A stretch of DNA of 64,000 nucleotides from Thermoanaerobaculia bacterium (GTDB lineage: Bacteria > Acidobacteriota > Thermoanaerobaculia > Gp7-AA8): positions 70,791 through 134,790 of the forward strand of contig DASUSN010000158.1 of the NCBI GenBank assembly GCA_036375075.1. The letters run 5' to 3'. Made by a program: the position numbers and the translations under genes. Under the pieces are notes generated by a model that was not told the DNA's origin, ran no database searches, and saw only the letters and a program-made list of their open reading frames with translations. Positions 14,144 to 62,045 of the stretch are shown piece after piece. How positions within the stretch are numbered: position 1 is the stretch's first letter; every line of letters begins with the position of its first letter.

Positions 14144-15691
14144 TTACGGTGCCTGCAGCAGCCGGTAGCCCGACACGACCTCGCCGCTGCGGGTCGGGGT
14201 CGAGACGTACACGCGGACGCGCTGGCCGCTGCGGACCCTGTCGATCACGGTGCGGAAGTCGTCTACGTTGGTCACGCGCTGGCCCTGCACTTCGCTGATC
14301 ACGTCGCCTTCGCTGATGTTCGCCTCGCCGGCCGGGGAGACGTTCTTCACGTTGGTGACGACCACGCCGGTGATGTCCTCCGGCAGGTTGTGCAGGCGGC
14401 GCAGCTCGGAGGTCAGGTTCTGCACGGTCAGTCCGAGCTTGTCGCGCACCGGCTCGGCCGAGCGCGTCTCCTCCTCGGGGGTCTCGCCGTCGACCGGGCG
14501 CTGCGCGGTGCGGGCGGTGAGGACCATGCGCTGGCCGTTGCGGATGACGCCGACCTTCACCTCCGTGCCCACGGGCAGATAGGAGATGTAGTCGATGAGC
14601 TCGCGGTTGTTGCGGATCGGCTTGCCGTCGACGTCGACGACCACGTCGCCGTGGCGGATGCCGGCCTTGTCGGCGGGCTTGCCCGGGTCGACCGACTGCA
14701 CGAGCGCGCCGCGCGCCTCCTGCAGGTTGAACGCCTCGCGGATCTCTTCGGTCACGTCGCCGATGGACATGCCCAGATAGCCGCGGACGACCTTGCCTTC
14801 CTTGAGCTGCGGCAGGAGCGTCTTGGCCGTATTGACCGGCGTGGCGAAGCCGATGCCCTGCGCGCCGCCGCCGCGGATCGCGGTATTGATCCCGATGACC
14901 TCGCCGGCGATGTTCAGAAGAGGACCGCCGGAGTTGCCGAAGTTGATGGCGGCATCGGTCTGGATGAAGTTCTCGAACGACTGCGTCTCCGGGCTCAGGC
15001 CGAGGGAGCGGCCCTTGGCCGAGATGACGCCCACGGTGAGCGTGTTCTCGAACGTGAACGGGTGACCGATGGCGATGGCCCAGTCGCCCTTGCGGATCCG
15101 GTCGGAGTCGCCGAGGCGGATCGAGGGAAGCTGCTGGTCGGTGTCGATCTTCAGCAGGGCCAGATCGGTGGCCGGGTCGCGGCCGACGATCTTGGCCGGG
15201 ATGGTGCGGCCCCCGTTGCCGTTCTCGTCGGCGCCGAAGTGCACGTCGACCTTCGTCGCGCCTTCGATGACGTGGTTGTTGGTGAGGATGTAGCCGTCGG
15301 GCGAGACGATGAAGCCCGAGCCGCCGCTGCGCTGGGCCTGCTCGTCGTCCTCGTCCGAATCGCCCTGGCCGCCGAAGCGCCGGCGGTTGGGATCGGACGG
15401 ATCGGGGAAGAAGAACTCGAACGGGTCGATGCCGAACTGGCGGCGCCGCTCGCTGCTCTTGACGATCTCGGTCGAGCGGATGGAGACGACCGCGGGCATG
15501 ACCCGCGAGGCGACGTCGGCGAACGACGGGATGGTCACGGAGGCCACGGAGCCGCCGCTCGGCGTCTGGATGGCCGTCTGCGCGTTGGACTTGCGCATGA
15601 AGCCGAGGTCCGCGCTGATGAGGATCCCGAAGGCCACCGACGCGATGACGATGGCGATCGTCGACAGGATGCGCTTGGTGGATTGGTTCAT
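14144..15691 (-). CDS. htrA: Do/HtrA/DegP-family periplasmic serine endoprotease with two PDZ domains
   Basis: TNNHVI (His), DLALLKI (Asp), GNSGGPLLN (Ser). Start ATG 15691 (MNQSTKRILSTIAIV...) has AGGAGG upstream; the track start 15772 is over-extended. Confidence 0.9.
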   Translation of the reverse strand: MNQSTKRILSTIAIVIASVAFGILISADLGFMRKSNAQTAIQTPSGGSVASVTIPSFADVASRVMPAVVSIRSTEIVKSSERRRQFGIDPFEFFFPDPSDPNRRRFGGQGDSDEDDEQAQRSGGSGFIVSPDGYILTNNHVIEGATKVDVHFGADENGNGGRTIPAKIVGRDPATDLALLKIDTDQQLPSIRLGDSDRIRKGDWAIAIGHPFTFENTLTVGVISAKGRSLGLSPETQSFENFIQTDAAINFGNSGGPLLNIAGEVIGINTAIRGGGAQGIGFATPVNTAKTLLPQLKEGKVVRGYLGMSIGDVTEEIREAFNLQEARGALVQSVDPGKPADKAGIRHGDVVVDVDGKPIRNNRELIDYISYLPVGTEVKVGVIRNGQRMVLTARTAQRPVDGETPEEETRSAEPVRDKLGLTVQNLTSELRRLHNLPEDITGVVVTNVKNVSPAGEANISEGDVISEVQGQRVTNVDDFRTVIDRVRSGQRVRVYVSTPTRSGEVVSGYRLLQAP

Positions 15692-15821
15692 AGGTTTTGC
15701 TGATTCCTCCTGGTGTGGCGGGAGCGATTGCCACCCCTGTGCAAACATCGTAAGTGCCACTGCAGGGGTCACATTCCCGTCCCCCGTTTCAGACGCGGCT
15801 GGTTCCGAAATGTTCCGTCAC

Positions 15822-25911: not shown

Positions 25912-26022
25912 GAGTATCTCCGACGATTGAGTTGGGGGGACGAAAGGACGGCGCGAATTATCGCAGAGGTCGCGCGTGCAGGGGCGCTGATTTTCGTAAA
26001 ATCCGCTCGAATTGGAGACTGA

Positions 26023-26820
26023 ATGGCCGAGCTCGTTGCTTATCGCGTGGAAAAAGGCGTTGCCATCTTCGAGTTGAACGACCCCCCCGCGAATACCTAC
26101 ACCTATGAGATGAACCGCGCCCTGGACGACTGCATCCTCCGGGCGCGCATGGACGACGAGGTCCACGTGATCGTGATGCGCGGCGCGGGCGAGAAGTTCT
26201 TCTCCGCCGGCGCGAACATCCGGATGCTCACGGAGGTCACCCCGCAGTTCAAGTACTACTTCTGCCTCCACGCCAACGAGACCATGAACCGGCTCGAGCA
26301 GACGCCGAAACTGGTGATTGCCGCGCTGAACGGCCACTGCGTCGGCGGCGGCCTGGAGATCGCCATGGCCGCGGACATCCGCATCGCCCTGCAGGGCAGC
26401 GGCAAATGGGGTCTCCCGGAAGTCGGCCTCGGCGTCCTCCCCGGCACGGGCGGCACCCAGCGGCTCTCGCGCCTGGTCGGCAAGACGAAATCGCTCGAGC
26501 TGATGGTCGAAGGGGGCCTGCACGAGTACGAGAAGGCGCTCGAGCTGGGCGTGGTGAACTACGTCTGGCCCGCGGAAGAGGACGGGAAGAAGTGGTGGGA
26601 GCGGGTGATGGACTACGCCTGGAGCTTCTGCCCGCCGAACAAAGCCTCGAAAGCCGTGGGCCGCATCAAGCGGGCCGTCCAGACCGGATGGGAGATTCCC
26701 ATCGAGTCCGGCCTCGCCCTCGAACGGGAATTGCAGCAACAGCTCTTCCAGAGCGAAGACGCGGGAGAGGGGCTCGCCGCGTACACTGAGAAACGAACCC
26801 CGGCGTTTACGGGGAAGTGA
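26023..26820 (+). CDS. enoyl-CoA hydratase/isomerase (crotonase) family protein
   Basis: GEKFFSAGANI and ALNGHCVGGGLEIAMAADIRIA oxyanion-hole motifs. GGAGA upstream of ATG 26023. Confidence 0.85.
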   Translation: MAELVAYRVEKGVAIFELNDPPANTYTYEMNRALDDCILRARMDDEVHVIVMRGAGEKFFSAGANIRMLTEVTPQFKYYFCLHANETMNRLEQTPKLVIAALNGHCVGGGLEIAMAADIRIALQGSGKWGLPEVGLGVLPGTGGTQRLSRLVGKTKSLELMVEGGLHEYEKALELGVVNYVWPAEEDGKKWWERVMDYAWSFCPPNKASKAVGRIKRAVQTGWEIPIESGLALERELQQQLFQSEDAGEGLAAYTEKRTPAFTGK

Positions 26821-26825
26821 CGGCG

Positions 26826-26978
26826 GAGTCGTCGAGTCTTCGAGTCTTCGAGTCTTAGTCGTAAAGTCGTAAAGAGGACTCGTGGCGATTTCTCTTAAGA
26901 CTTTCAGACTCGACGCCTCGAAGACTCGACGGCTTGAAGACTCGACGACTCGACGACTTGAAGACTCGACGACTCGAC
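26826..26978. repeat. word-repeat palindrome, family B, copy 3 (largest)
   Basis: gagtcgtcgagtcttcgagtcttcgagtcttagtcgtaaagtcgtaaag ... cttaagactttcagactcgacgcctcgaagactcgacggcttgaagactcgacgactcgacgacttgaagactcgacgactcgac. Confidence 0.85.
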
Positions 26979-26990
26979 CAAGGACCATCC

Positions 26991-48614: not shown

Positions 48615-48724
48615 CCTCCGTCCCCCTCTGTGCCTCTGTGTCTCTGTGGTGAATACCCACATGCCTCCTGCGAGGCGCGTTCGTATTCACCACAGAGACA
48701 CAGAGACACAGAGGGGGACGGAGG
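48615..48724. repeat. word-repeat palindrome, family C, copy 3
   Basis: Collinear with 29591-29700. The arms are identical except for one paired change (a->c in the left arm, t->g in the right arm). The other four differences fall in the loop. Confidence 0.95.
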
Positions 48725-48759
48725 GAGGCATATGGAGTCGGCGCGGTACCATCCCGTCC

Positions 48760-49404
48760 ATGAGCGAATTCACGGATGCCATCAAGGCCGGCGACGCCGC
48801 GCGCGTGGCCGCGCTCCTCGACGCCGATGCCTCTCTCCTGACCGCACACGAGAACAACACCACCCCGCTCCTCCTGGCGATCTACCACGGCAAATCCGTC
48901 ATCGCCCGCCTCCTCCTCGACCGCGGCGCCCCCGTCTCCTTCCCCGAAGCCTGCGCCCTCGGCGACGAAGCCCGCGTGCAGGAGCTCCTCGCCGCCGACC
49001 CCTCCGCGCTCAACATGCGCACCGCCGACGGCTTCCCACCCATGCCCATGGCCATCTTCTTCGGCCACGGCGCCCTCGCCCGCTGGCTCATCGACCGAGG
49101 CGCCGACGTCAACGCCCCCGCCGCCAACCCCCAGCGCGTCGCTCCGGTCCACGCCGCCGCCGCCACCTGCGACCGCGAGACCATGCGCATACTCCTCGAG
49201 CGCGGCGCCGACCCCAACGCCCGCCAGCAGATGGACTACACCCCCCTCCACGGCGCCGCCAGCCGCGGCGACATCGAGATGGCCCAACTCCTCCTCACCC
49301 ACGGCGCCGACCGCGAGGCCAGGGCGAGCGACGGAATGACCGCAGGGGACGTGGCGCGCAAGTACGGGAAGGTGGAGTTCGCGGAGTGGTTCGAAGGAAC
49401 CTAG
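48760..49404 (+). CDS. ankyrin repeat protein
   Basis: TPLLLAIYHGKSVIARLLLDRGA, VAPVHAAAATCDRETMRILLERGADPNA, YTPLHGAASRGDIEMAQLLLTHGADREA. ATG 48760; the track ORF starts inside the palindrome. Confidence 0.8.
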   Translation: MSEFTDAIKAGDAARVAALLDADASLLTAHENNTTPLLLAIYHGKSVIARLLLDRGAPVSFPEACALGDEARVQELLAADPSALNMRTADGFPPMPMAIFFGHGALARWLIDRGADVNAPAANPQRVAPVHAAAATCDRETMRILLERGADPNARQQMDYTPLHGAASRGDIEMAQLLLTHGADREARASDGMTAGDVARKYGKVEFAEWFEGT

Positions 49405-50114: not shown

Positions 50115-51755
50115 CTAGCGGACTTCGACCCAGTCAGCTTTCCGGCTGAGGATCTTTCCCCTGAAATCGAAGAGCGTCATCCCGTTCTTCGTCGACACGG
50201 CGAGGTCGCGCCATCGCGTGTCACGGTCGAGGATGCGCAGCTCGTGGATCGTGTCGGCGGGAGACCGCAACAACTGGCACCAGCGCGGCGAGAGCTTTTT
50301 CGCGTCGATGCCGCAGACGCGATCGCTCCCCGTGACGGCGATGATCGCGTTGTGCATGTTGGTGGGACGCAGAACGGCCACGTTGAAGAGGCGGGCGGCG
50401 TAATCGTCGCTGGACCGCACGTTGCCTGCGCTGTCGACCACCGTTACCCGCGAACGATGCTTGCCGTTCCACAAAGCCACGATCTGAGTCGTGTGTTTGC
50501 GGAAGAGGTCTCCGGTTGCGAACGAAGCCAGGGACATGCCGTCCCCGGGGTGCGCCCACAGCTCTTTACCGTCGCGGTCATAGGCACGGAGTGTGTCGCC
50601 GGTGCCGACGACGACTTCGTAGAACGCATCCGCGTCGAGGTCGGCCGGTACGGCGTGCACGACGGGTTGAGCGAAGGTCTTGCGCCAGAGCGGATTCGTG
50701 TCGAGATCGTAGGCGGAGACCGTCGCGCCGTCCACCACGACGCGGATGGGGAACTTCTCGCTGCGCCAGCATTGCGCGAGGGGCATATTGCGCGCGCTGC
50801 CTTCCATGCTGACCTGCGTCGCGGGCGAACCGCCGGGCTTGTTGCTGGCCTCGATCCAGCGGCGCACTTCGCGCTCGACGTAGGTGTGCAGCGTCTCGGC
50901 AATGACCTGGCCTCGCGGCGCGGAAGCTTTGCAGTCCAGACCGTCCAGCACCGCTCCGGTGAAGACACCGTTCTGGCGGTCCTCGTCGTCGTATGCGACC
51001 TGGTCGGCGGCGGCGGCGTAGAAGATCACCTGTCCTTGCACGCGGGCCATCTTCTCGATCAGCGGCGCGGCGATCGTGCGATCGCGCCCTACGCTGCGTG
51101 AGCTGTTGCGGCGGTCCCGGCAGGCGTCGATGAAGACGAGCGAGCGGGTCGCCGTTCCCGCCGTGTCGAGCAGCGTGGCCAGACGAAGAGAGGTCTCGGG
51201 CGAGCCGATATCGGAAGTGGAGCCGAGGATGTAGGCGTCGCCGCGGTCGTCGAGGAAGCCGTGGGTGGCGAGGGAAAAGACGACCAGCCCGTTGGCGCCG
51301 GCTCTCGCCGTCTGTCGCTTCAGCAGCTCGAGAATGTCGCCCGCGGTCGCGTGCTCGACCTCGGCGCCTTCCTCTCGCAGTTCCTTCAGCCTCTGTTTCG
51401 ATTCTTCCTTCCGAGGCTCGCCGGAGAGCGCGAGGATGACCCGCCCCGGAGGAACAAGGCTGGAGCGCTGATCGAGGGAGAACTTGTGCGCGAGGTCGAC
51501 CGCGTCATCCGCCGCGAACGGCACATTGAGGTTCTCGTCGTGAGGAAACCTGTGCACGCCGACGAACAGCCCGGTTGACGCCGGTCGCCACGGTTCCACG
51601 AGTACCGTCTCGCGGCTCTTCGCTCGCTGCACCGATCTCCCCTCGGATCGCTCCTCCGGCCGGGTGAGGACCAGGACCGCGGTGGTGATGGAGATCGCGA
51701 GCAGAACGATGGCGAGAAGCAGTGACAGCCACGTCTTCATGACGTTCAAAGACAC
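50115..51755 (-). CDS. membrane-anchored caspase-like (peptidase C14-like) protease with C-terminal beta-propeller-like domain (P1)
   Basis: N-terminal TM WLSLLLAIVLLAISITTAVLVL. His/Cys dyad contexts VVFSLATHGF and LVFIDACRDR. C-terminal about 200 aa with repeats of the ...YDxDGKxLW... type. GTG 51755 or ATG 51740 as start. Confidence 0.7.
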   Translation of the reverse strand: MSLNVMKTWLSLLLAIVLLAISITTAVLVLTRPEERSEGRSVQRAKSRETVLVEPWRPASTGLFVGVHRFPHDENLNVPFAADDAVDLAHKFSLDQRSSLVPPGRVILALSGEPRKEESKQRLKELREEGAEVEHATAGDILELLKRQTARAGANGLVVFSLATHGFLDDRGDAYILGSTSDIGSPETSLRLATLLDTAGTATRSLVFIDACRDRRNSSRSVGRDRTIAAPLIEKMARVQGQVIFYAAAADQVAYDDEDRQNGVFTGAVLDGLDCKASAPRGQVIAETLHTYVEREVRRWIEASNKPGGSPATQVSMEGSARNMPLAQCWRSEKFPIRVVVDGATVSAYDLDTNPLWRKTFAQPVVHAVPADLDADAFYEVVVGTGDTLRAYDRDGKELWAHPGDGMSLASFATGDLFRKHTTQIVALWNGKHRSRVTVVDSAGNVRSSDDYAARLFNVAVLRPTNMHNAIIAVTGSDRVCGIDAKKLSPRWCQLLRSPADTIHELRILDRDTRWRDLAVSTKNGMTLFDFRGKILSRKADWVEVR

Positions 51756-51790
51756 CGTTCGCGTGGAAAGTGTGGCGCGTACTTGACGAA

Positions 51791-52399
51791 CTACCGCCGT
51801 GGTGTAACGCGGAACGCGTACCGATCGACCACGCCGTCATCGCCGCGCACGATCAGCGTGTACGTTCCCACGTCGAGGAACTCCCCGGGGATCGTCACGA
51901 TGAAGGTGTCGTCGATCGGATGAACTCCGCCCGCGCTCCACAACCGCTTCGTGCCGCGCGCGATCTCGATCTCGTGCTCGCCATCCGGCGGTTGCGAGGG
52001 GACTACGGTGATGACGTACTCCCGCTCTCCCGCGGGCAGCTCTCGAGTCACGCCCGTTCCCCGCGTCAACAAGGGACTGAATTCATGATGCGACGAAGCC
52101 ACAGCCGGCTCGCGATCCGGGCGATTCACGAGGAGCAACGCCAGGACCACCGTCGCGGCCACGGCGTACGCACGCAGCGCGAGCGGTTTGTGTTGCGGCT
52201 TCTCGACGCGCTCGTCGAGGAGCGGCGTGAGCTCGGGGGAGTAGACGAGCAGCGCGCGGACCCGCTCGGCCGCGGCGCCGGACAGCTCGCCATCGAGATA
52301 CGCCATCACTTCCTCGGGAGAAGGCGGGCCGCCGAGGCGCTCGCGTTCCTCTTCGGCCCACGCGTTCAGCGCGTCGTCCCAGTCATTTTTCGTGATCAT
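51791..52399 (-). CDS. single-pass anti-sigma factor-like protein (no zinc motif), paralogue of 61260-62045
   Basis: N-terminus ...PPSPEEVMAYLDGELSGAAAERVRALL (anti-sigma-like but lacks HxxxCxxC). TM helix AYAVAATVVLALLLV and a beta-rich C-terminal domain. GGAGA 6 nt upstream; overlaps the sigma gene by 17 nt. Confidence 0.65.
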   Translation of the reverse strand: MITKNDWDDALNAWAEEERERLGGPPSPEEVMAYLDGELSGAAAERVRALLVYSPELTPLLDERVEKPQHKPLALRAYAVAATVVLALLLVNRPDREPAVASSHHEFSPLLTRGTGVTRELPAGEREYVITVVPSQPPDGEHEIEIARGTKRLWSAGGVHPIDDTFIVTIPGEFLDVGTYTLIVRGDDGVVDRYAFRVTPRR

Positions 52400-52928
52400 C
52401 GTGGTCTCCGAAAAGGCTCATCCAGCGCACGTCGGCCGGCGGCTCGCCGGCACGTGCTCGTATGAGCTCGAATGCGCGGGAGAGGCGCGAACGGACCGCC
52501 TGGTCCGTCAGCCCCAGCTTCGACGCGATCTCCTTCGATCGGAGTCCCTGCGCTCTGAGGAAGATGGCCTGCTGGGTCTCGGGAGTAAGCTCGCGCATGA
52601 CTGCGAGGAAGCGGGTTTGGAACTGCTCGGTCTCCTGCCGTTCGATCAAGGTCTGCTCGGCGGAAGAGGTCTCGTCGGACGCATCAGGCGTAGCTTCCAA
52701 CGAAGTCAACGGCCGGCGACGAGTAGCGAGCTTTCTGGCGAGGTTGAAAGCCGCCACGACCAGATACCGCCATTCGGCTTCCGGAGCGACATGATCCAGC
52801 CGCTTCCACGTGGCGATGAGCGTCTCCTGCGCGATGTCCTCGGCATCCTGCTCCGACTGACCGAAGCCGATGAGCTTCTTCGTCAGTGGTTGCAGATGAC
52901 GGGCATACAGGTCGTCGAGGCGGCTCAT
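52383..52928 (-). CDS. ECF-type RNA polymerase sigma factor (sigma-1)
   Basis: Region 2 DAEDIAQETLIATWKRL...RYLVVAAFNLARK. Region 4 LRAQGLRSKEIASKLGLTDQAVRSRLSRA. Confidence 0.85.
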   Translation of the reverse strand: MSRLDDLYARHLQPLTKKLIGFGQSEQDAEDIAQETLIATWKRLDHVAPEAEWRYLVVAAFNLARKLATRRRPLTSLEATPDASDETSSAEQTLIERQETEQFQTRFLAVMRELTPETQQAIFLRAQGLRSKEIASKLGLTDQAVRSRLSRAFELIRARAGEPPADVRWMSLFGDHDDHEK

Positions 52929-52988
52929 CGATCCTGATGAAGAGATCCGGTTGCCGGACGTTTGTGGCGCGAGGCGCGCGGGCTACGT

Positions 52989-55262
52989 TCAGCGCGAGGC
53001 CGCGTTCTTCCGCGGCGCGACCGATTCGAATGCCACGCGTTCGATCGACCACCGGCTGGTCGTCAGTGCGCGAGTGGCGCGGGTGCCGCTCGTCGTCAGG
53101 AAGAGGAGCTCTTCGAGCGGCGAGAGCGGCTGGGTCCACTCCGGTACCCGCACACCGTCCCAGGTGAGGACGGACGGATTGGGGAGCGGCTCGTCGGTGG
53201 AGAGCAGGAAGTACGTGTCGACGCCGTAGGGGTGCGTGATGTCGAAGGCGCTGGCGTTGCCCAGGCGGATCTCGGTGGGGGCAGGGTCGCGGAGGGGGAA
53301 GCGGTTCTCGACCGACCCGGTCTCCGGAAAGGCGAGGAAGCTCTTGCCGTGGCTGTCGATGACGAACGCGTAGTAGTAGCGGGGCGTGATGGTCGAGGCC
53401 AGCGGCTGCGCTGCGCGGAGGACGACGCTGTAGGTATCGCCGCCGATGACGGCGCCGTCACGGACGAGCTCTTTGGTCTTCTCGCGCAGCAGGACCAGGC
53501 GGTACGGTGCGCGGGTATTGGGCGGAGACTCGAGCCGGTGCCAGGCGTGGATGCGCCGCAGGGTCAACACGCTCCTGCGCAAAGCCTCCACCGAATCGCG
53601 CAGCGTCCCGTCGCGGAAATCCTCGGCCACCCACGCGGTGCGCTGCGGCAGGCCGCTGTCGCGGCGCTCGTCGTTGCGGACGAGCGGGCGTAACCACGCG
53701 TACTCCATTCGGGATGCGTAACGCCCGGCGAGGATGTAGTCGGCATCCCGGGGATCATCGACCGGGACGATGCCTTCGCGGTCGGTGCCGGGCCCGATCC
53801 CGATGCCGTCAATGAGCGCGGCCGGGGCGGGGAACTGCACGAACAGCGACGCGCTGGGGTGCAGGCGCGCGATGGCCGCGAACAATGACGGCTCGTTGTC
53901 GAAATGCGAGATATTGCCGTCGTGGTCCAGCAGCTCCCAGCCGGTGCCTCGCGGACGCAGCACGTGCGTCGGCGCGGTATCGATCGGGTCCGCGACCCAG
54001 CGCGGTTTCCCGGCCGTCGCCAGCCGTCGGGCGAGTTTGGCGATCTTCCGTACGTCTCCGGAGACGCGAGGCGCCCACACCCGCAACGGCCGTCCCGGCG
54101 GCGCCGCCCAGCCGACGACTTCCAGCAGCGCTCCGGCGCGGACCGCCTGCGGCATGCCGCGTCCCGTCTCCATGCGCGCGATGCTGCGGCCCAGGCCGAG
54201 GATGGTCGTGACCCGCAGGCGCGCGGTCAGCGCGCGATCGCTCACGCAGCTCAGCTCGGTCCCGACCGAAAGGCCGTTCGCCCAGCCGCCCTGCAATACG
54301 ATGTTTCCATCAGGCTCGACGCGCTCGACGGCGACGACCGGCCGGTCGCCCTGCCGGTCGATCCTCACGCCGAGGAACGGCCGCAGCCGCGCCTCGGCCG
54401 GGCCGAGCATGGCCGGCGCCTGGTAGGGCGTCTCGCCGCGCAGCCGGGCCTGCGCGCGAAGGAACGTCTCCTGCGCCGGCTCCCCCGCGACGGCATCGCG
54501 CATCGCGCGGATCCAGGCCCACGTGAACGAGCCGTGCATCAGATCATCGTCGCCCCGCGTCTCCCATGCAGGGTCGAGGTCCTGCGTCGATGCGAGCACC
54601 AACGCGCCGCGCTCGTCGGGGCGCGGCCCGTAGCGCGTCGGATCGTTGATCTCACGGCCTCGGCGGATGCCCCGCGGATGTGCACCGGTCGGCAGGCCGC
54701 GGAATCCCGAGCCGCTGTGGCAGTGATCGAGGATCAGCGTCAGATGCGCGCCGCGGTCGAGGATGCGATTGAACAGCGGGCGCAGCTCCTTGTCGCGGAT
54801 GTCGGACGCGCCGAGGCGGGAGTCGGCGGGGACGATCGACTCGTCGAGCCGGTCCAGCTCGTCCGAGCTCGGATTCGGCACCTGCGAGCCGTGGCCGGCG
54901 TAGTAATAGAAGACCACGTCGCCTTTGCGCGCGGGCTTCACGAGATGCTGCTCGATGGACTGCAGGATGGCCGCGCGCGTGGCCTGCTGGTTGCGGAGCA
55001 GCACGATGTCGTCCGGATCGAAGCCGTAGAGCAGGACGAGCATCTCCCGCAGGATGCCGGCGTCGTTCGCGGCGCCTTTGAGATCGGGCCAGCCGCGATG
55101 GTCGGTCTTGACGCGCAGCGGCCGGGGAAGGGTGGATGCGGTGTAGTCGTCGATGCCGATCAGCAGCGCGCGGCGGCGGAGCGGGGTTTGGGCGTCGAGC
55201 GACGGTGCGGACAGGCCACAGGCCGCCAGCACCAGGAGTGCACATTGGAGGTGGCGTTTCAT
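52989..55262 (-). CDS. exported caspase family (peptidase C14) protein with long C-terminal region ending in a DUF4384-like domain (P2)
   Basis: Start ATG 55262 (MKRHLQCALLVLAACG: signal/lipobox). ALLIGIDDY, YYAGHGSQ (His), LILDHCHSGSG (Cys). C-terminal YYYAFVIDSHGKSFLAFPE...GVDTYFLLSTDEPL resembles DUF4384 by eye. The track ORF is over-extended. Confidence 0.8.
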   Translation of the reverse strand: MKRHLQCALLVLAACGLSAPSLDAQTPLRRRALLIGIDDYTASTLPRPLRVKTDHRGWPDLKGAANDAGILREMLVLLYGFDPDDIVLLRNQQATRAAILQSIEQHLVKPARKGDVVFYYYAGHGSQVPNPSSDELDRLDESIVPADSRLGASDIRDKELRPLFNRILDRGAHLTLILDHCHSGSGFRGLPTGAHPRGIRRGREINDPTRYGPRPDERGALVLASTQDLDPAWETRGDDDLMHGSFTWAWIRAMRDAVAGEPAQETFLRAQARLRGETPYQAPAMLGPAEARLRPFLGVRIDRQGDRPVVAVERVEPDGNIVLQGGWANGLSVGTELSCVSDRALTARLRVTTILGLGRSIARMETGRGMPQAVRAGALLEVVGWAAPPGRPLRVWAPRVSGDVRKIAKLARRLATAGKPRWVADPIDTAPTHVLRPRGTGWELLDHDGNISHFDNEPSLFAAIARLHPSASLFVQFPAPAALIDGIGIGPGTDREGIVPVDDPRDADYILAGRYASRMEYAWLRPLVRNDERRDSGLPQRTAWVAEDFRDGTLRDSVEALRRSVLTLRRIHAWHRLESPPNTRAPYRLVLLREKTKELVRDGAVIGGDTYSVVLRAAQPLASTITPRYYYAFVIDSHGKSFLAFPETGSVENRFPLRDPAPTEIRLGNASAFDITHPYGVDTYFLLSTDEPLPNPSVLTWDGVRVPEWTQPLSPLEELLFLTTSGTRATRALTTSRWSIERVAFESVAPRKNAASR

Positions 55263-55316
55263 CGCCTCTGTTCTCTCTTTCGTAGAGAATGCTGCTTTCC
55301 TGTGAGACAGCGTTGG

Positions 55317-56276
55317 ATGCTCGCCGTGGCGTTTGCGCTCGCGCTGCCGGTTTCCGGCGGCGTGACGCGCAGAGCGCAGCCGGTGCCGGACGGCCCGGTC
55401 GAGGCCTCGCAATCGGCGGCCTTGTTCGTGGGAGTACGGGCGTTTTCGCACGACCGCACGTTGACGGAGGTGCGGTATGCGGTGGACGACGCCATCGACC
55501 TCGCGCATCTGCTGGCGTTCGAGCGCACGCCGCGGCTGATCGAGCCGCGGCGGGTCGTTCTGGCGTTATCGGGCGAGGCCGAGAAGCCCGATTCGCGCCG
55601 CCGGCTCGAGGAGCTCGTCCGGGCCGGTGCGACGGTGCGGCCGGCCGGACATTCGGAGCTGCTGACGTTGCTGGAAGCGCAGGCCGCCGCGGTCGGACCG
55701 GCGGGCATTCTCCTCGTGTCGTTCGCCACCCACGGTGTGAGCGATCGCGGCGTCCAGTACCTGCTCGCGTCGGATTCGCTGCTGCAGATGAGCGGCACGA
55801 AGATCGCGGCCGCCGACGTGGAAGACATCGTCTCGCGGGCCGGCGTGCGGCGGGCATTGATCCTGTTCGACGCCTGCCGGCAGCGGCTGACGCGCGACAC
55901 GCGTGCCGGCGCCGTCGATCCACGGTCTGCCGCGGCCTTGCTGCAGGAGATCGCGAACAGCGACGGCCGCGTGGTGTTGTCGGCCGCGGCGGCGGGGCAG
56001 TATGCGTACGACGACGACACATTGCGTAATGGCGTGTTCACGGCGGCGGTGATGGACGGCCTGCGCTGCGAGGCGCCGGCCGACGAGCGGGGATTCGTCA
56101 CGGTGGATACCCTTTCTTCCTATGTCGAGGATCGGGTGCTGCAGTGGATCCGGCGCCATCGCGATCGCGACGCGCGCGTCGCGACGCAACTGCAGTGCGA
56201 GGGCGCGTCGAAGAAGATGCCGCTCGCGGCGTGCGTCAGCGGCAGACCGGCATCGTCTGCGCCTCCTGCCGAGTGA
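55317..56276 (+). CDS. exported caspase-like protease domain protein, paralogue of the P1 protease domain (P3)
   Basis: ATG 55317 (MLAVAFALALPVSGG). ALFVGVRAFSHD...DDAIDLAH...LLVSFATHGV (His)...LILFDACRQR (Cys)...GVFTAAVMDGL aligns collinearly with P1. The 790-aa track ORF is an artefact. Confidence 0.7.
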   Translation: MLAVAFALALPVSGGVTRRAQPVPDGPVEASQSAALFVGVRAFSHDRTLTEVRYAVDDAIDLAHLLAFERTPRLIEPRRVVLALSGEAEKPDSRRRLEELVRAGATVRPAGHSELLTLLEAQAAAVGPAGILLVSFATHGVSDRGVQYLLASDSLLQMSGTKIAAADVEDIVSRAGVRRALILFDACRQRLTRDTRAGAVDPRSAAALLQEIANSDGRVVLSAAAAGQYAYDDDTLRNGVFTAAVMDGLRCEAPADERGFVTVDTLSSYVEDRVLQWIRRHRDRDARVATQLQCEGASKKMPLAACVSGRPASSAPPAE

Positions 56277-56604
56277 TCGAGCCGTAGGTCCAGAGGCCTC
56301 CGTCCTGGTCCCTGTAGGCGACGGCGCGGAATTTCCGTTCCTCGGCGTACTGCTGCAGGCCGCCCGGATAGGTGGCGGACTCGCCGTCGCCGTAATGCAG
56401 CGTCTCGACCGTCGCGTCGTCCAGGGCGGTCCGCGTGCGGACGAGCAGGACCCGGCAATCGGTACCGGCGGCGTAGGCCGTCAGCTCGTGGAGTGTGTAG
56501 TTGCGCGTGAGCATCCGCGCGGACTCGATGGGGGCTTTCGCGTCGGGATTGAAGTCGCAGGCGGCGAGGGCCGCGAGCAGAGCGAGAGCAGAGAGGTGCT
56601 TCAT
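56236..56604 (-). CDS. hypothetical lipoprotein (122 aa)
   Basis: MKHLSALALLAALAAC lipobox; no family recognised. Convergently overlaps the P3 3' end by about 40 nt. Confidence 0.55.
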   Translation of the reverse strand: MKHLSALALLAALAACDFNPDAKAPIESARMLTRNYTLHELTAYAAGTDCRVLLVRTRTALDDATVETLHYGDGESATYPGGLQQYAEERKFRAVAYRDQDGGLWTYGSITRQEAQTMPVCR

Positions 56605-56669
56605 GGAAGCCTCCTATGGAAAAGCGGTTCGCCATCGGGCGATGGCGAACCGCGGTACGGTGGGGAGCT

Positions 56670-57710
56670 TCAGGGAGTGTCGACCCGCGTCGGCGGGCAG
56701 ATGGTGCGGTCGTACAGCGAGCGGCCGGCGTCCATGCGCAGGCGGTTGAGCAGCTCGGAGTAGACCGCCGTCGTCGGATGGACCGTCGACCAGCTCACCT
56801 GCGGCACGGTCGTGCCGCTCGGCGCGCCGGCGCGCGGCACCAGCCGCGTCTCGCGCGCGGGCGGGCTGTCCAGCAGCTCGTAGTACATCTCGAAGTGCTT
56901 GCCGACCTGCGGCGCGTTGTTGTTCGACGACGCCGGCGGAACGAACGGCGGCAGGTTGATGACGGCGATCTCCACCTGGCCGGAAGAGTCGGGTGTGAGG
57001 GTCATCGAGCGGCCGGTGCTGTTGTCGTGCTTCGTCTCGACGAGCTGGATGCTGCTGCCGGGGACCTCGATGTCGACGCCGACCCAGCTGCTCACGGCCT
57101 GGACGTACGCCGACGTGTTGCCGGTGCCGTCGAGGCGCTTGAAGTGCACGGGCGTGACGTCGCTGCCGAGGCGCGCGACACTGAAGGTGGAGAGCTCGCC
57201 GCTGTCGATGGTGAAGCGCGCGGCCACGATGGACGGCGGCACGGCGTCGAAGACGTCGGAGTCCAGCGTGCAGCCGCTGCCGCAGAGGTCCGAAAGGCTG
57301 GCGATCCAGGAGAAGTCGCCGCGCTGTGTGGACGTCGTCGGGATGACGTCCGTGCCGCGGACGCCGTCGACGATGTTCAGTGCGGGCAGGTTGCCGCCCT
57401 GGACCGTGAGGTCCGAGCCGGAGATCAGCCACGCGCTGCCGTTGCCGAGGGCGTCGGCGAGGGAGTCGAGGGCGACGGAGGGGGACTGATCGCGGAAGCT
57501 GAAGCCGGCGATCGTGGCATTGTTGGTCACGCAACTGCCGCTGCAGCCGCCGGCGCGGACATAGACGATCGGCGTGTGCGCCTGCATGGCGGCGCCGTCG
57601 GACGTGTGGTGCTGGTCGGCATTGAGGAGCAGGACGGTCACTTCCGTCCCGTTCTCATTGGGAACGAAGGCCATCAGGCCGGTGAAGAGAATCTTTGCGA
57701 TGAAGCTCAC
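56670..57710 (-). CDS. hypothetical protein (346 aa) with two CxxxC pairs, overlapping the CHAT gene 3' end
   Basis: AGGAGG 8-9 nt upstream of GTG 57710 (alternative ATG 57674), giving a 56-nt (or 20-nt) overlap with the upstream CHAT ORF. Hydrophobic N-terminus SFIAKILFTGLMAFV. GGCSGSC and LCGSGC. No family recognised. Confidence 0.5.
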   Translation of the reverse strand: MSFIAKILFTGLMAFVPNENGTEVTVLLLNADQHHTSDGAAMQAHTPIVYVRAGGCSGSCVTNNATIAGFSFRDQSPSVALDSLADALGNGSAWLISGSDLTVQGGNLPALNIVDGVRGTDVIPTTSTQRGDFSWIASLSDLCGSGCTLDSDVFDAVPPSIVAARFTIDSGELSTFSVARLGSDVTPVHFKRLDGTGNTSAYVQAVSSWVGVDIEVPGSSIQLVETKHDNSTGRSMTLTPDSSGQVEIAVINLPPFVPPASSNNNAPQVGKHFEMYYELLDSPPARETRLVPRAGAPSGTTVPQVSWSTVHPTTAVYSELLNRLRMDAGRSLYDRTICPPTRVDTP

Positions 57711-60651
57711 TGTGTTTTTCCTCCTGTGCGGTGCGTGGTGCGTAAGGCGAGTCCGCATAGCCGACCGCCTGGAATGCCGCCCACGCTCTCGCGGGTCGTT
57801 TGTCCCGGAGCATTTCGAGCTGCGCCTTCCGGAGCGCAACTGCCACCTCGTCTCCGTTCCGATAGTGACGATGAAAAGACACCAGCAACTCGCGAGTTGT
57901 GGCGCTGTCCTTCACGTCCCATAACGTACCGACGACGGCCGGAACCCCGGCCGCAATGAGCGGCCGGACTAGAGGAGCGAGACCTTCGGGCCCGATGGAT
58001 TCTCCGGACGCGGTGCTGCACGCGGCGAGCACGATGAGGCGCGTCTGGCTGAGGACCTCTGGCCGGGTGAGGAGTCGTTCTGCAGTGAGATCGCCCGAGC
58101 TGTTTCCCTCCGGAGCGAGAATGAGTCTCGACAGCCACGGGTCGTATGGGTTCGCGACTGCGTGACCGGCGAAATGGATGATGGTGGCGTTTCTGGCGGC
58201 GGTGAGGAATCGCTTGATGGATGCCTCATCGCCGAGAAGAAGGTCGGAGCCGGGGTATTCAGCGTGAAGTTGTCGCGCCTCGGCGGCTGCATTTGCGAGT
58301 TGCTGCAACTGGGACGTATCGGCAAGAGCGGGATCGCCGACGATGAGCACACTCGGGTCGCCGCCGCGAGAAAACTGTCGGTCGCGGAGCGTTGAGTACA
58401 GATAAAGCGACGTACTGCCTGCGACGGCGATGCTGCGGCGAGCGATGACGTATCCCTCTTTCTGGCTCTCCAGAGCAGCGAAGGGAAGCCCGTGCATGGG
58501 GCCGTCGGGGACGATGACGACCCGGCGGTGTCGCAAGCCCGCGAGCGGCGTGCTGAAGAGTCCATCGTACACGGCACGCATCGTCGTTGCCGGAACGTTC
58601 TGACCGGCGATGATCGCCGTATGGATGTTCTCGACCCAGGTGCGGATTGCTGTGCGGCCGACGCCGTGCTGGAACGGAATGATGCCCTCTCGCGAAAGGG
58701 CCCAGGAGTACGTCTTGTCCTCCAGAACCAGATACTGAAGGATCAGCGTGTCTTCCGGAATCGCCGCACGCATCTGTTCCAAAGCAGCCATGCTGTCGAT
58801 TCTCCGGAAGCCGGACGGCATCGAAGCCGTCTGCAGGAGGAGTTGCAGCGGCTCGAAGCCGCGCGCCTGTTCTGCATAGAGGAACGCACCCTGGACGTCC
58901 TTCTGCCGGACATGGCGCTCGATCATTTCGTGATGCAGCGACTGGAAGCGGGAGAAGTAAGGTTTCCAGAGAGCTTCGTAGTGGCCGCGCGTAGTCATGT
59001 TGCGTAGCTGGATTGCTTCGTCCCGCAGCAGCGCCAGCGCCGTGGCCAGGTCATCGTTCGACTCGGGAGCTGTTCCGCGGGCCAGTCCTCGTTTGTAGTA
59101 GAGATGTGCACGATAACTGGCGTATTCATTCGGAGCGCGCTCGATGGCTTCGGTGAAGTGTTGAACTGCTTCGGGGAGCCGGCCCTTCGCGAACGCTTGA
59201 TGGCCTCTCACCTCGGAAAGACGCATGTTGAGCAGTGGAAGGTACGCGGAATCCGCTGCTTTTGCGGACTCCGTGGCCTCCACAAGATCGCCTTCGGCCA
59301 GTGCGTCGTGACCGAGTGCGATATGAATGTCGGCACGCTCCCGGAGAGCGATAGCGTAGTGATGCTTCGCGTCCTGAATCTCGTCCGCAGATGCGTGGGT
59401 GATCGCTCTCTGAATTAGCTCGACGCCAGCGTTCTGAAACTGGAGCGCAATGGCCGGAAAGCCCAGGTCACGCGCTGCTCTGGCGGCGGCGGCGTACCCT
59501 TGATGGATAGCATCTAGGTCCGTAACACCGGAAAGAAGAGGTAACACGGCTAAGGCGTCGCGGAACGCCTCTTCGAATCTGCCAATCGTGCTGTAGTTGA
59601 AGGTTCGGCGGCTCAGGATTTGTGCTTTGCGGGTGGATGATTCGTTGAGCGCGAATGCCTGGTCATATGCCTGCAAGGCTTCGAAATATCGAGATTGCCC
59701 TTCCAGCGCGACGGCTCGCAGAATACACGTGCGGGTCGCGAGGTCCCGGTAGCCGTTGTCTAAGGCCACCGAAATGATTGGCTCGAGTAGGGACAGGCAG
59801 TCGCCTCCTGAACGGAACACCTCTCCTGCGGCTTTTTGGCGAGCGAGGAGCTGAAGGGGATTTCGCGCGTGTTCGAGCAGCTCGGCGGCTTGCGTGTATC
59901 TGGCTTGCTGAAGAGCCGTCACACCCTTCTCGAAAGCGGAGCGGTCGTGCGTTCGCGAAGCGGCGTCCACGACCGCGCGTGCGAACGGATCATCAAACAC
60001 ACCGGCGAGTAACCTCGCCTTCGGGAGGTCGATCAGAGCGGAGGTCTCGAAATAGTCCATCGCCTCTTTGGGGAAGGCCCGAGCGAGGCGGCGAGCTTCT
60101 AATGTGTCCCCGCGTTCGAGGGCGGCAGCCATCTTTTCGGAGCTCCAGCGGGGCGGCACGGCCTGCACCCGCTCGAGGTGCTTTCGCGCCTCCGACTTCC
60201 ATGCCGGTGCGTCGTGCTGCAGGACCTCACTCCACGAGTGCTGTGCCTCGCGGGTGAGACCGAATTGCTGCTGAATGAGCGCGCGATTGAAACGGGCAGC
60301 GTCGGATTGCGACTTCAATGCTGCATCCAGCGCACGCAGCATGCTCACGGGGTCGTTTTTCCGTCGCGAGCGAATGAAGAACGCCGCGGCGAGATCCTCT
60401 TTAGAGTGCTTGCTGACTGCGGCTACAGCTCGATCGAGACAGTCGCCGTTCGCGCGGACCAATAGCGCGATTGCCTGATCGCGGGTCTCGATCTTTTCGT
60501 CGCACGAGGCGCGTACCTCATTCCATTCCAGCCGCGGCTCGACCGTACGCCACTTTTTGACGGCATTGGTGTCTGCTCCATCGTTACAACCCGCGACTGC
60601 GCCGCAGAGGATCGCAACAAAAGCCATGGCAACGAAAAAGAGTCTCTTCAC
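57655..60651 (-). CDS. TPR-repeat CHAT-domain lipoprotein (caspase-fold protease) (P4)
   Basis: GTG 60651 gives (M)KRLFFVAMAFVAILCGAVAGC, a lipoprotein signal. Long helical-repeat region (ALQAYDQAFAL, AIALQFQNAGVEL, ...). C-terminal CHAT: VVIVPDGPMHGLPFAAL, IIHFAGHAV (His), LIVLAACSTASGE (Cys), WAAFQAVG. Confidence 0.8.
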   Translation of the reverse strand: MKRLFFVAMAFVAILCGAVAGCNDGADTNAVKKWRTVEPRLEWNEVRASCDEKIETRDQAIALLVRANGDCLDRAVAAVSKHSKEDLAAAFFIRSRRKNDPVSMLRALDAALKSQSDAARFNRALIQQQFGLTREAQHSWSEVLQHDAPAWKSEARKHLERVQAVPPRWSSEKMAAALERGDTLEARRLARAFPKEAMDYFETSALIDLPKARLLAGVFDDPFARAVVDAASRTHDRSAFEKGVTALQQARYTQAAELLEHARNPLQLLARQKAAGEVFRSGGDCLSLLEPIISVALDNGYRDLATRTCILRAVALEGQSRYFEALQAYDQAFALNESSTRKAQILSRRTFNYSTIGRFEEAFRDALAVLPLLSGVTDLDAIHQGYAAAARAARDLGFPAIALQFQNAGVELIQRAITHASADEIQDAKHHYAIALRERADIHIALGHDALAEGDLVEATESAKAADSAYLPLLNMRLSEVRGHQAFAKGRLPEAVQHFTEAIERAPNEYASYRAHLYYKRGLARGTAPESNDDLATALALLRDEAIQLRNMTTRGHYEALWKPYFSRFQSLHHEMIERHVRQKDVQGAFLYAEQARGFEPLQLLLQTASMPSGFRRIDSMAALEQMRAAIPEDTLILQYLVLEDKTYSWALSREGIIPFQHGVGRTAIRTWVENIHTAIIAGQNVPATTMRAVYDGLFSTPLAGLRHRRVVIVPDGPMHGLPFAALESQKEGYVIARRSIAVAGSTSLYLYSTLRDRQFSRGGDPSVLIVGDPALADTSQLQQLANAAAEARQLHAEYPGSDLLLGDEASIKRFLTAARNATIIHFAGHAVANPYDPWLSRLILAPEGNSSGDLTAERLLTRPEVLSQTRLIVLAACSTASGESIGPEGLAPLVRPLIAAGVPAVVGTLWDVKDSATTRELLVSFHRHYRNGDEVAVALRKAQLEMLRDKRPARAWAAFQAVGYADSPYAPRTAQEEKHSELHRKDSLHRPDGLRSQ

Positions 60652-60683
60652 GCTTTCATAAGATACGCGGTTCGCGAGAATGG

Positions 60684-61256
60684 ATGCGAGCAATGACGAT
60701 GCGAAGCAAGGGCGGTGGCAGTGACGATCTGTTTCGGTCCCTGTATGACCGCTATTCCGCGCGCATGTTGCGGTTTTTCCGGACGGTCTTCCGTGTCTCC
60801 GATGCGGAAGCGCAGGAGCTGACGCACGACTCGTTCCTACGGTTCTACCGGACCATGCACGAATACCGCGGCGAAGCCGAATGGGCGTTGCTCGAGACCA
60901 TCGCGCGGAACGTGGGATACAACCGGGTGCGCTCGCTGACGACCATCAAGCGTGGTGCGGTGCGTCCGGAGTCGCTCGACGACACGGAGTCTTCTCGAAA
61001 GGATCCGGTGGCTGTGCAGCAGCACCCGCTGGATCGCATGATCGACGCGGAGCGCAGGACGCGCCTTCGCCGGGAAATGGCCGCTTTGCCGAAAGGGCAG
61101 AGGCAGTGCCTGCAGTTATGGCTGGATGACTGGAGCTACGAAGACATTGCGACGACGCTGCGCATCTCTGTCGACGCGGTGAAATCGCGCCTCCGCGATG
61201 CACGGCGGCTGTTGCGCGAACGACTGGGAGACGAAGGCGTGCTCCCGGAGGAATGA
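60684..61256 (+). CDS. ECF-type RNA polymerase sigma factor (sigma-2)
   Basis: Region 2 EAQELTHDSFLRFYRTM...LLETIARNVGYN. Region 4 LWLDDWSYEDIATTLRISVDAVKSRLRDAR. In-frame alternative starts at 60693 and 60699. Confidence 0.85.
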   Translation: MRAMTMRSKGGGSDDLFRSLYDRYSARMLRFFRTVFRVSDAEAQELTHDSFLRFYRTMHEYRGEAEWALLETIARNVGYNRVRSLTTIKRGAVRPESLDDTESSRKDPVAVQQHPLDRMIDAERRTRLRREMAALPKGQRQCLQLWLDDWSYEDIATTLRISVDAVKSRLRDARRLLRERLGDEGVLPEE

Positions 61257-61259
61257 ATC

Positions 61260-62045
61260 ATGACCGACAAATCGGATTGGAAGGACGCGAGCCGCGAGCT
61301 GCGCGCGGACGAGCGGCGGAAGCTGGGCGATCCGCCGACTGCCGAAGAACTGCAGGCGTATTACCGCGGTGAGCTTTCGGAGCAAGAGGAAGACCGGATC
61401 CGCGATCTCATCGTCGCGTATCCCGAGTTGGTGCGGATGTACAGGGAGCCTGCCCCCGATGCCCCTCGGCCGGGCGATTCCGACTATGTCGGAGCGGATC
61501 AGGTAGCCTCAGGCTGGCGCACGTTACAGCAGCGCCTGCGACAGCCATCGCCAGCGCGAGTACAGGCTGTACGCGGCGAAGCGCAGCGCGGTGTGCTGTT
61601 GTACGTTCCGACTGCTGTCGCAGCTGTGTTAGCGGTCATCTGCTTCGGGCTTTACGTTCGCGCGGAGGGCCGCGCGCGGTACTTCGCTGAGCAGAGTAGG
61701 CAACCGCTGATCCTCGCGGCGGCCCAGCAACTCGATCCGGACGGAAATCGGGGGTCGGCCTCGCCGCTGCCGCTTCGCAAGGACGGTGAGGCGTATCTGC
61801 TCAAGCCGGTCCTCGTCAACGAATTTCGCTACTCGCGTTATCAGATCGAGCTGCGTGATTCGAACGATGCTCTTCTCTGGAGTAACCGCGATGCCCATCC
61901 GGCCGACGACGAGCACGCGTTTCAGATCGTTGTCCCGCATACCTTTCTTACCGAGGGACAGACTTACCGGCTGGGGATCTTCGGAGTGGATGGCCAAAAG
62001 TCGGAGCGGCTCGCCTCGTACGAATTCAAGGTTCCGGTGGAGTGA
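61260..62045 (+). CDS. single-pass anti-sigma factor-like protein (no zinc motif), paralogue of 51791-52399
   Basis: MTDKSDWKDA...ERRKLGDPPTAEELQAYYRGELSEQEEDRIRDLIVAYPEL aligns with the N-terminus of the 51791 protein. TM helix LLYVPTAVAAVLAVICFGLYV. GGAGGA upstream, 3 nt after the sigma-2 stop. Confidence 0.65.
   Translation: MTDKSDWKDASRELRADERRKLGDPPTAEELQAYYRGELSEQEEDRIRDLIVAYPELVRMYREPAPDAPRPGDSDYVGADQVASGWRTLQQRLRQPSPARVQAVRGEAQRGVLLYVPTAVAAVLAVICFGLYVRAEGRARYFAEQSRQPLILAAAQQLDPDGNRGSASPLPLRKDGEAYLLKPVLVNEFRYSRYQIELRDSNDALLWSNRDAHPADDEHAFQIVVPHTFLTEGQTYRLGIFGVDGQKSERLASYEFKVPVE

Follow-up and report, generated by a model that had tools for sequence, protein, structure and literature searches.

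The 64,000-nucleotide stretch of DNA analysed here (the window) comes from a soil metagenome-assembled genome of Thermoanaerobaculia (Acidobacteriota), and its region between positions 50,115 and 62,045 is best explained as one copy of a self-contained six-gene envelope signalling cassette. The core six genes encode a sigma factor of the extracytoplasmic function (ECF) type (sigma2), an anti-sigma factor (anti-sigma2), a TPR-CHAT lipoprotein (P4), a protein of an undescribed family (h355), a small lipoprotein (lipo122) and an exported protease of family Peptidase_C14 (C14; P2), while two further C14 proteases (P3 and P1) and a second, paralogous sigma/anti-sigma pair (sigma1 and anti-sigma1) are present as accessories. 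From left to right, the core reads P2-type C14, lipoprotein, h355 and TPR-CHAT, all on the minus strand, followed divergently by sigma and anti-sigma on the plus strand. This explanation draws on gene content, domain composition, catalytic residues, predicted topology and synteny. The core genes are as follows.

52989–55262, minus strand: P2, exported metacaspase-like Peptidase_C14 protein, 757 aa
56236–56604, minus strand: lipo122, small conserved lipoprotein, 122 aa
56670–57710, minus strand: h355, about 346 aa, undescribed family, overlapping the 3' end of P4 by 56 nt
57655–60651, minus strand: P4, TPR-CHAT lipoprotein, 998 aa
60684–61256, plus strand: sigma2, ECF-type sigma factor, 190 aa, with Sigma70_ECF, Sigma70_r2 and Sigma70_r4_2 matches
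61260–62045, plus strand: anti-sigma2, single-pass anti-sigma factor with an FN3/Ig-like ectodomain, 261 aa

The first-pass annotation of this DNA had described the region as a unit of four exported caspase-fold proteases wired to two sigma/anti-sigma pairs. All eight open reading frames (ORFs) that it listed are present at their coordinates, and profile searches agree with its domain calls, giving three Peptidase_C14 proteins, one TPR-CHAT lipoprotein and two pairs, each with one ECF sigma factor plus one single-pass anti-sigma factor. The unit itself has to be redrawn as the six-gene core, with P1, P3 and the sigma1/anti-sigma1 pair as optional members, and its inventory lacked two genes between P3 and P4, those of lipo122 and h355, which were recognised from third-position GC plots and orthologue alignments.

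Conservation of the cassette

A scan of species-representative genomes with the anti-sigma alignment identified 16 loci, all from Thermoanaerobaculia or Acidobacteriota. A metagenome scan with the h355 alignment identified 79 further loci, and the pooled, de-duplicated set contains 92 h355 instances, of which all that can be assigned to a taxon likewise belong to Thermoanaerobaculia or Acidobacteriota. Neighbour counts are given as the number of loci with the gene over the number with enough flanking DNA to show it. A CHAT gene lies beside h355, with h355 directly after it, in 63/63 loci, accompanied by a sigma gene (47/47), an anti-sigma gene (47/47), the small lipoprotein gene (76/78) and a P2-type C14 gene (55/55); all six genes are found in 42 of 43 loci, with identical order and orientation. 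Since each search used one bait gene, the remaining five genes are independent observations. Every species-representative locus with enough DNA contains the complete cassette, and three loci with anti-sigma2 homologues have the same six genes in the same order, with flanks that differ each time. In one genome (L006/L019), the complete cassette is present twice, with 15 kb between the copies. The co-localisation of sigma/anti-sigma pairs with CHAT and C14 genes, on which the first-pass annotation was built, is thus seen in every locus with enough flank and represents a non-random link.

Identity to the window proteins decreases from h355, the most conserved protein of the cassette (48–85%; 63–85% to its orthologues), through the C14 domain, sigma, CHAT and anti-sigma to the N-terminal TPR/scaffold region of P4, the fastest-evolving part (26–43%). 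As judged from the sequences, this rate gradient fits a variable sensor combined with constant catalytic parts.

The accessory genes of the window are as follows.

50115–51755, minus strand: P1, membrane-anchored Peptidase_C14 protein with a C-terminal BamB/PQQ_2-like beta-propeller, 546 aa, alternative start ATG at 51740
51791–52399, minus strand: anti-sigma1, single-pass anti-sigma factor, 202 aa, paralogue of anti-sigma2, overlapping the 3' end of sigma1 by 17 nt
52383–52928, minus strand: sigma1, ECF-type sigma factor, 181 aa, with Sigma70_r2 and Sigma70_r4_2 matches
55302–56276, plus strand: P3, exported stand-alone Peptidase_C14 protein, ATG at 55317, probable start GTG at 55302

In 14 of 58 loci, a P3-like C14 gene occupies the same place, flanked by the lipoprotein gene and P2 and opposite to them in strand, so P3 is a standard option of the cassette and not a local insertion. 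In 12/32 loci, the P2-type gene is followed by a P1-like gene for a C14-propeller protein, and in most of them no second sigma/anti-sigma pair lies in between. Pairs of the sigma1/anti-sigma1 type adjoin the core in the window and in loci L012, L016, L022 and L023, and a C14 gene directly follows such a pair in 4 of 5 informative cases. The spacings reported earlier are all correct: sigma1 and anti-sigma1 overlap by 17 nt, P1 follows after a further 35 nt, and P4 and sigma2 diverge with 32 nt between them. The paralogies proposed earlier are likewise recovered: P3, a paralogue of the protease domain of P1, shares 44% identity with P1 (E 1e-62), while the two anti-sigma factors share 27% (E 2e-17) and the two sigma factors only 26% (E 2e-5).

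Four distant relatives of h355 are all encoded directly 3' of a TPR-CHAT gene that is divergent from sigma-like and anti-sigma genes (4/4), with anti-sigma factors of either the zf-HC2 type or the window type. Because distant h355 loci keep CHAT and sigma/anti-sigma genes, some of them without C14, the ancient unit is read as a sigma/anti-sigma pair divergent from TPR-CHAT and h355, which was duplicated inside the class and gained C14 on one branch. Paralogous modules of this kind, in which a sigma-like gene and a zf-HC2 anti-sigma gene are divergent from TPR-CHAT and an h355-like gene and C14 is absent, are found in L103 (4768–9074), L106 (3824–8074) and L105 (4016–9010), with an acyltransferase gene on one side. 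L103 and L106, which are assigned to Thermoanaerobaculia via linked ribosomal genes, carry the module at a fixed position beside the str ribosomal operon. The 'sigma' proteins of the paralogous modules comprise 250–272 aa and show faint Sigma70_r4 similarity only. In L104 (3524–6963), an overlapping gene for a 262-aa lipoprotein stands ahead of TPR-CHAT and the CHAT ORF is without a signal peptide, an arrangement due either to a true split or, the long-read assembly being of low coverage, to a frameshift.

Proteins and non-coding elements of the cassette

P4 matches the Pfam family CHAT (PF12770) with an E-value of 6.5e-53 (180.5 bits), while its TPR matches are sub-threshold. Its residues His830 and Cys878 are invariant in 11 orthologues, and a lipobox is present in nearly all orthologues. 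Marginal matches to PDB entries around the cysteine involve the CHAT domain of craspase (8D9H, E 0.011) and separase. Two proteobacterial plasmid CHAT genes were inspected for a generic link between CHAT and ECF genes; neither adjoins ECF genes, and their neighbours are type VI secretion or two-partner-secretion genes or unrelated genes. The TPR-CHAT gene has the lowest third-position GC (GC3) of the cassette, with a mean of 0.72 against 0.84 for h355 in 41 loci and a value of 0.69 in the window, where the flanking genes have 0.90–0.97. Recent horizontal transfer was considered as the source of the low GC3 and rejected, as the CHAT gene is the lowest of the cassette across the 41 loci, which makes low GC3 a property of the gene family.

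The protein h355 matches no Pfam, NCBIfam or PADLOC family, its AlphaFold2 (AF2) model from an alignment of 40 close homologues is weak (predicted local distance difference test score, pLDDT, 57), and a Foldseek comparison of this model with PDB gives no match under E = 1. The family comprises 538 homologues when clustered at 90%, and at 50% identity it forms 434 clusters (E ≤ 1e-3). Five cysteines, among them two CxxxC pairs, do not vary in the family, an ICPP motif is conserved at the C-terminus, and the N-terminal motif LRILFxGLxAFVP is kept even by distant homologues and modelled as a beta-strand. The protein has no signal peptide, its N-terminus being this conserved structural motif. The other small core protein, lipo122, contains a signal peptide and the lipobox LAALAAC, both conserved in orthologues, and matches no Pfam, NCBIfam or PADLOC family.

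Export signals were assessed by eye and by conservation across orthologues. The lipoprotein or Sec signals of the CHAT protein, the small lipoprotein and P2 are kept across orthologues, and P1 has an N-terminal membrane anchor in the form of a hydrophobic stretch of about 23 residues, in agreement with the envelope location predicted for the proteases in the first reading of this DNA. For P2, that reading had proposed a signal with a lipobox; its orthologues mostly have ordinary signal peptides in place of a lipobox.

P1, P2 and P3 belong to Peptidase_C14, as they score 39.9, 72.0 and 36.2 bits, respectively, against PF00656 (cut-off 21.4; E-values 4.8e-10, 7.8e-20 and 6.6e-9), while their scores against the NCBIfam model 'caspase_w_EACC1' (44–68 bits) are far under its cut-off of 140. 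The His/Cys dyads read from the translations in the first-pass annotation are intact in the window proteins and kept in the orthologues examined. In P2, AGHG and DHCHSG are aligned with the GHG and CHSG motifs of the yeast metacaspase Yca1 (PDB 4F6O), which contain the catalytic histidine and cysteine of that enzyme, and the dyad is present in 16/16 orthologues examined. P2 also retains the aspartate two residues ahead of the catalytic cysteine, which in metacaspases lines an S1 pocket specific for arginine or lysine. Its C-terminal region of about 450 aa is variable, and the C-terminal half matches no Pfam family at E ≤ 1; the 'DUF4384-like' end once suggested for it is accordingly dropped. 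P1 and P3 share the motifs ATHG and DACR (IDACR in the P1-like genes), both retained in the P1/P3-like genes of L022 and L023, and the P1-like gene of L016 keeps DACR, with a His motif not resolved by the search. The propeller of P1 is a PQQ_2/BamB-like match (2.2e-7), and the GTG at 55302 is probably the start of P3, as it gives a better signal peptide than the ATG at 55317.

Both sigma factors belong to the ECF group (group 4), as they contain the sigma2 and sigma4 regions only and sigma1 and sigma2 score 60.9 and 60.5 bits, respectively, against TIGR02937 (sigma70-ECF; cut-off 42.9). The solved structures nearest to sigma2 are SigE, SigH, SigK and RpoE, and its start is probably the conserved ATG at 60693. 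Each anti-sigma gene is located directly downstream of a sigma gene and coupled to it. The family of anti-sigma1 contains 72 homologues, one of which is named 'anti-sigma factor RsiW' by JGI, and anti-sigma1 has a weak zf-HC2 match (0.004). The AF2 model of anti-sigma2 (pLDDT 88) comprises four N-terminal helices, a helix at residues 116–147 covering the hydrophobic segment and a beta-sandwich at about 150–258, which together predict a cytoplasmic helical domain, a single transmembrane segment and an ectodomain. The ectodomain has FN3-like fold matches in both Foldseek and a PDB profile search; that profile search links the N-terminal domain to no solved anti-sigma domain, and Foldseek matched the ectodomain alone. 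The match of anti-sigma2 to the NCBIfam model 'antisigma' (NF052375; 4.5e-4) is under the cut-off. The HxxxCxxC zinc motif is absent from both window anti-sigma factors, whose N-terminal domains contain no His/Cys motif. Arg164, situated at the ectodomain's start, does not vary across 67 sequences from both families of anti-sigma factors, nor in a distant relative. Since the aspartate of P2 fits an S1 pocket for arginine or lysine, the Arg164-Gly bond is put forward as a hypothetical cleavage site.

Two non-coding elements are found within the core.

60652–60692, no strand: divergent intergenic region between P4 and sigma2 with the near-invariant motif TAAGATACGCGGTTCGCGAGAATGG, presumably regulatory
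56624–56653, minus strand: GC-rich hairpin with a 13-bp stem between h355 and the lipoprotein gene, terminator- or attenuator-like

The gap between P4 and sigma2 extends to 41 nt if sigma2 starts at the ATG at 60693. In an alignment of 16 loci, a motif of about 30 nt in this region is conserved though the proteins are only 35–50% identical; its core occurs once in the window, and no -35/-10 elements can be assigned in it. In several loci, the 8-mer CGGTTCGC of this motif recurs as the stem of the hairpin that follows h355. That stem-loop is found at the same place in 16/16 loci inspected, with differing stem sequences, which points to partial termination after the CHAT-h355 pair, ahead of the lipoprotein-C14 pair. 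In L012, it is enlarged to a long repeat-based hairpin. A sigma-70 promoter scan found none, and a scan for the ECF-type pattern GGAAC-N15-18-CGT gave two matches, both within coding regions and uninformative. Between 49 and 63 kb, no Rfam families or CRISPR-like features were detected, and there is no tRNA gene.

Proposed wiring, precedents and alternatives

The reading tentatively preferred here is that the cassette may function as an extracytoplasmic proteolytic cascade, organised like a split DdvA, through which the sigma factor is set free. At rest, the sigma factor would be kept at the membrane by its anti-sigma factor. Sensing of a periplasmic signal, probably a protein, would fall to the TPR/scaffold part of the CHAT lipoprotein, which evolves fast, and the activated CHAT domain, directly or through the C14 protease(s), would clip the anti-sigma ectodomain near the membrane in a site-1 cut, for which Arg164-Gly is the candidate. 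A site-2 protease and cytoplasmic proteases would then free the sigma factor, which would transcribe its own operon, the divergent protease operon and a further regulon.

The closest precedent is DdvS/DdvA of Myxococcus xanthus, in which DdvA, an ECF anti-sigma factor that spans the membrane, has as its periplasmic domain a TPR-CHAT whose dyad is intact (PMC11506125, PMC6061681). Its authors propose that DdvA acts as its own site-1 protease ahead of RseP, and the ddv operon encodes further downstream a functionally uncharacterised protein and a clan-CD C25-type peptidase (PMC11506125). The two systems share an ECF sigma factor with a single-pass anti-sigma factor, a periplasmic TPR-CHAT with an intact His/Cys dyad and the proposed role of CHAT as site-1 protease of regulated intramembrane proteolysis (RIP). 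They differ in that the TPR-CHAT of the cassette is encoded by a separate, divergent lipoprotein gene, unfused in all loci, and the anti-sigma factor has a small FN3-like ectodomain of its own. Unlike DdvA, the window anti-sigma factors have no zinc-binding anti-sigma domain (ZASD), although the distant modules have zf-HC2; C14 proteases, h355 and the small lipoprotein are constant partners in the cassette, which comes from another phylum and has no adjacent CBASS or CRISPR-Cas island. CHAT is placed upstream of the anti-sigma factor mainly because DdvA fuses TPR-CHAT to one. The same fusion (PMC11506125) lends indirect support to the plausible site-1 role on the anti-sigma factors that the first-pass annotation suggested for the proteases.

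In the type III-B system of Haliangium ochraceum, SAVED-CHAT cleaves and activates a C14 'PCaspase', which cleaves a sigma factor (PCc-sigma) (10.1101/2023.06.23.546230), and PCaspase's activation by SAVED-CHAT supports a cascade from CHAT to C14. CHAT, Peptidase_C14 and a sigma factor are encoded together in both cases, but the Haliangium system is cytoplasmic, triggered by cA3 via SAVED and without a membrane anti-sigma factor, whereas the cassette proteases are exported or lipid-anchored, with a TPR sensor region and no nucleotide-signalling genes. In the type III-E craspase, the TPR-CHAT protein Csx29 cuts Csx30, by which an ECF sigma factor (CASP-sigma) is released (PMC11506125; 10.1101/2023.06.23.546230). 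A TPR-CHAT protease and the freeing of an ECF-type sigma factor by inhibitor cleavage are common to craspase and the proposed cascade; however, craspase is cytoplasmic and RNA-guided (Cas7-11), there are no cas genes at the cassette, and the sequence similarity to P4 is marginal and confined to the CHAT active-site region. Cas7-11/Cmr genes and the SAVED domain were found neither in P4 nor among the proteins scanned elsewhere in the window, nor at the related loci.

EACC2-caspase systems lie near genes for an ECF sigma factor and for TPR (DUF1822) proteins (Kaur et al. 2021, PMC8195603), but are predicted intracellular conflict systems with EACC2 and variable effector domains, and no EACC or DUF1822 domain was found in the cassette. 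The main text of the ECF reclassification (PMC7826278) mentions neither CHAT nor caspase. In canonical RIP (RseA/DegS/RseP, RsiW/PrsW, RsiV), a single-pass anti-sigma factor is likewise the target, its periplasmic domain is removed first, and the logic proposed for the cassette is the same. To our knowledge, the known site-1 proteases of ECF anti-sigma factors are serine or metalloproteases, not clan-CD cysteine proteases. Given DdvS/DdvA, craspase and SAVED-CHAT/PCaspase/PCc-sigma as close conceptual precedents, the earlier remark that no characterised system has such wiring was too strong; none of the precedents compared, at the same time, has the arrangement of the cassette, which combines a separate CHAT lipoprotein, exported C14, a non-zinc FN3 anti-sigma factor, h355 and the small lipoprotein.

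Several points weigh against the proteolytic cascade. Protease activity or self-cleavage of DdvA has not been demonstrated, and its catalytic mutants are without phenotype in the tested conditions (PMC11506125). P4 is not linked to DdvA by phmmer or by a profile search of PDB, and neither promoter scan identified an ECF-type promoter. Who cleaves whom, the signal and the regulon are inferred, and the invariant Arg164 may simply be structural. To judge by its sequence, h355 may be cytoplasmic, a placement that the cascade leaves unexplained. Finally, gene adjacency fits proteases as the output of the sigma factor equally well.

This last point leads to the main rival, which is judged rather doubtful in itself and under which the sigma pair senses another envelope signal, while CHAT, h355, the lipoprotein and C14 constitute its regulon and do not act on the anti-sigma factor; they would be induced and exported to remodel the envelope, turn over proteins, acquire nutrients or attack competitors. 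A divergent gene pair with a conserved motif in the DNA between the genes is what one typically sees for an ECF sigma factor and the operon it targets, and in well-studied ECF systems the genes of site-1 proteases (DegS, PrsW) usually lie away from the sigma gene. Graded expression of an effector operon would suit the hairpin that separates h355 from the lipoprotein gene, and the variable C-terminus of P2 and the propeller of P1 could bind substrates. On the other hand, in DdvA the fused TPR-CHAT belongs to the sensing side of an anti-sigma factor, no part evolves faster than the TPR region, as would befit a sensor, the link between sigma/anti-sigma and CHAT-h355 persists where C14 is absent, and the search upstream of the protease genes yielded no ECF promoter. 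A role as output and the proteolytic cascade can coexist via positive feedback.

Less likely still is a defence or programmed-death module directed against phages or competitors, a role of the kind also put forward in the first-pass annotation. In it, the periplasmic TPR-CHAT would detect an invader protein, the caspase-type proteases would execute envelope proteolysis or abortive infection and the sigma factor would mount a defence at the level of transcription; such a role is compatible with both wirings. The characterised systems nearest to the cassette (DdvS/DdvA, craspase and SAVED-CHAT/PCaspase) all serve in phage defence, the sensor-like region evolves fast, the cassettes are in tandem in some genomes (L006/L019), the flanks are variable with defence-type neighbours in other genomes, and P2 and P3 match the PADLOC 'caspase' model (1.4e-21 and 2.8e-5, respectively). 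These observations are opposed by the rest of the window, which consists of housekeeping genes and in whose scanned proteins no CRISPR, CBASS or other defence genes were found, by the fixed position of the paralogous module beside the str operon, which resembles that of a core-genome regulator, by h355, which has no relatives among known phages or plasmids, and by the cassette as a whole, which matches no PADLOC system. Chance clustering or mis-annotation, with proteases and sigma factors as unrelated neighbours, has in its favour the general frequency of ECF sigma genes in Acidobacteria and nothing more, and is excluded by synteny in dozens of independent loci, with identical order and orientation in nearly all, differing flanks and conserved intergenic DNA.

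The proteolytic cascade matters since the gating of an ECF anti-sigma factor by CHAT from the periplasm so far rests on one system, DdvA, and a split version in dozens of genomes is independent evolutionary evidence that TPR-CHAT and ECF anti-sigma factors work together. With the components on separate proteins, these can be expressed and mixed to ask who cuts whom. The cassette also reveals h355 as a new protein family locked to TPR-CHAT genes, in a module that Thermoanaerobaculia, an abundant and little-studied soil group, have expanded. If the cascade is real, the range of bacterial caspase-like proteolytic cascades would widen from the cytoplasm to the cell envelope. A bolder and somewhat improbable extension is that the cassette defines a new class of ECF activation, in which a TPR-CHAT sensor acts through C14 orthocaspase(s) on the anti-sigma ectodomain in place of a serine or metallo site-1 protease, h355 is a hitherto unrecognised obligatory partner of extracytoplasmic TPR-CHAT, and the paralogous modules would form a family of protease-gated sensors for extracellular proteins of phages, competitors or prey.

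Genomic surroundings

In other genomes, the cassette adjoins DarT/Macro, a DUF4011-DUF3320 helicase, RmuC, Tubulin_2 pairs, DUF4236, VWA/PP2C and a MafB19-like deaminase; the loci with such defence- or conflict-type neighbours are L002 (579–2302), L003 (1–3329), L021, L022 and L023. The right flank of the window (DinB_2 and an FAD-dependent oxidoreductase) is common to L001. Just beyond P1, an ankyrin-repeat protein is encoded at 48646–49404 (plus strand), and the 700 nt between this gene and P1 (49405–50114) show no clear coding periodicity. Further away, the minus strand at 17644–26988 encodes a protein of 3114 aa with 11 DUF11 repeats, Calx-beta and an IPTL-CTERM sorting motif, probably an adhesin at the cell surface. 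At 14144–15772, also on the minus strand, lies the gene of a serine protease of the DegP/HtrA family (Do family, 446 bits); it is not linked to the cassette and represents a conventional candidate for envelope-stress proteolysis in the same genome.

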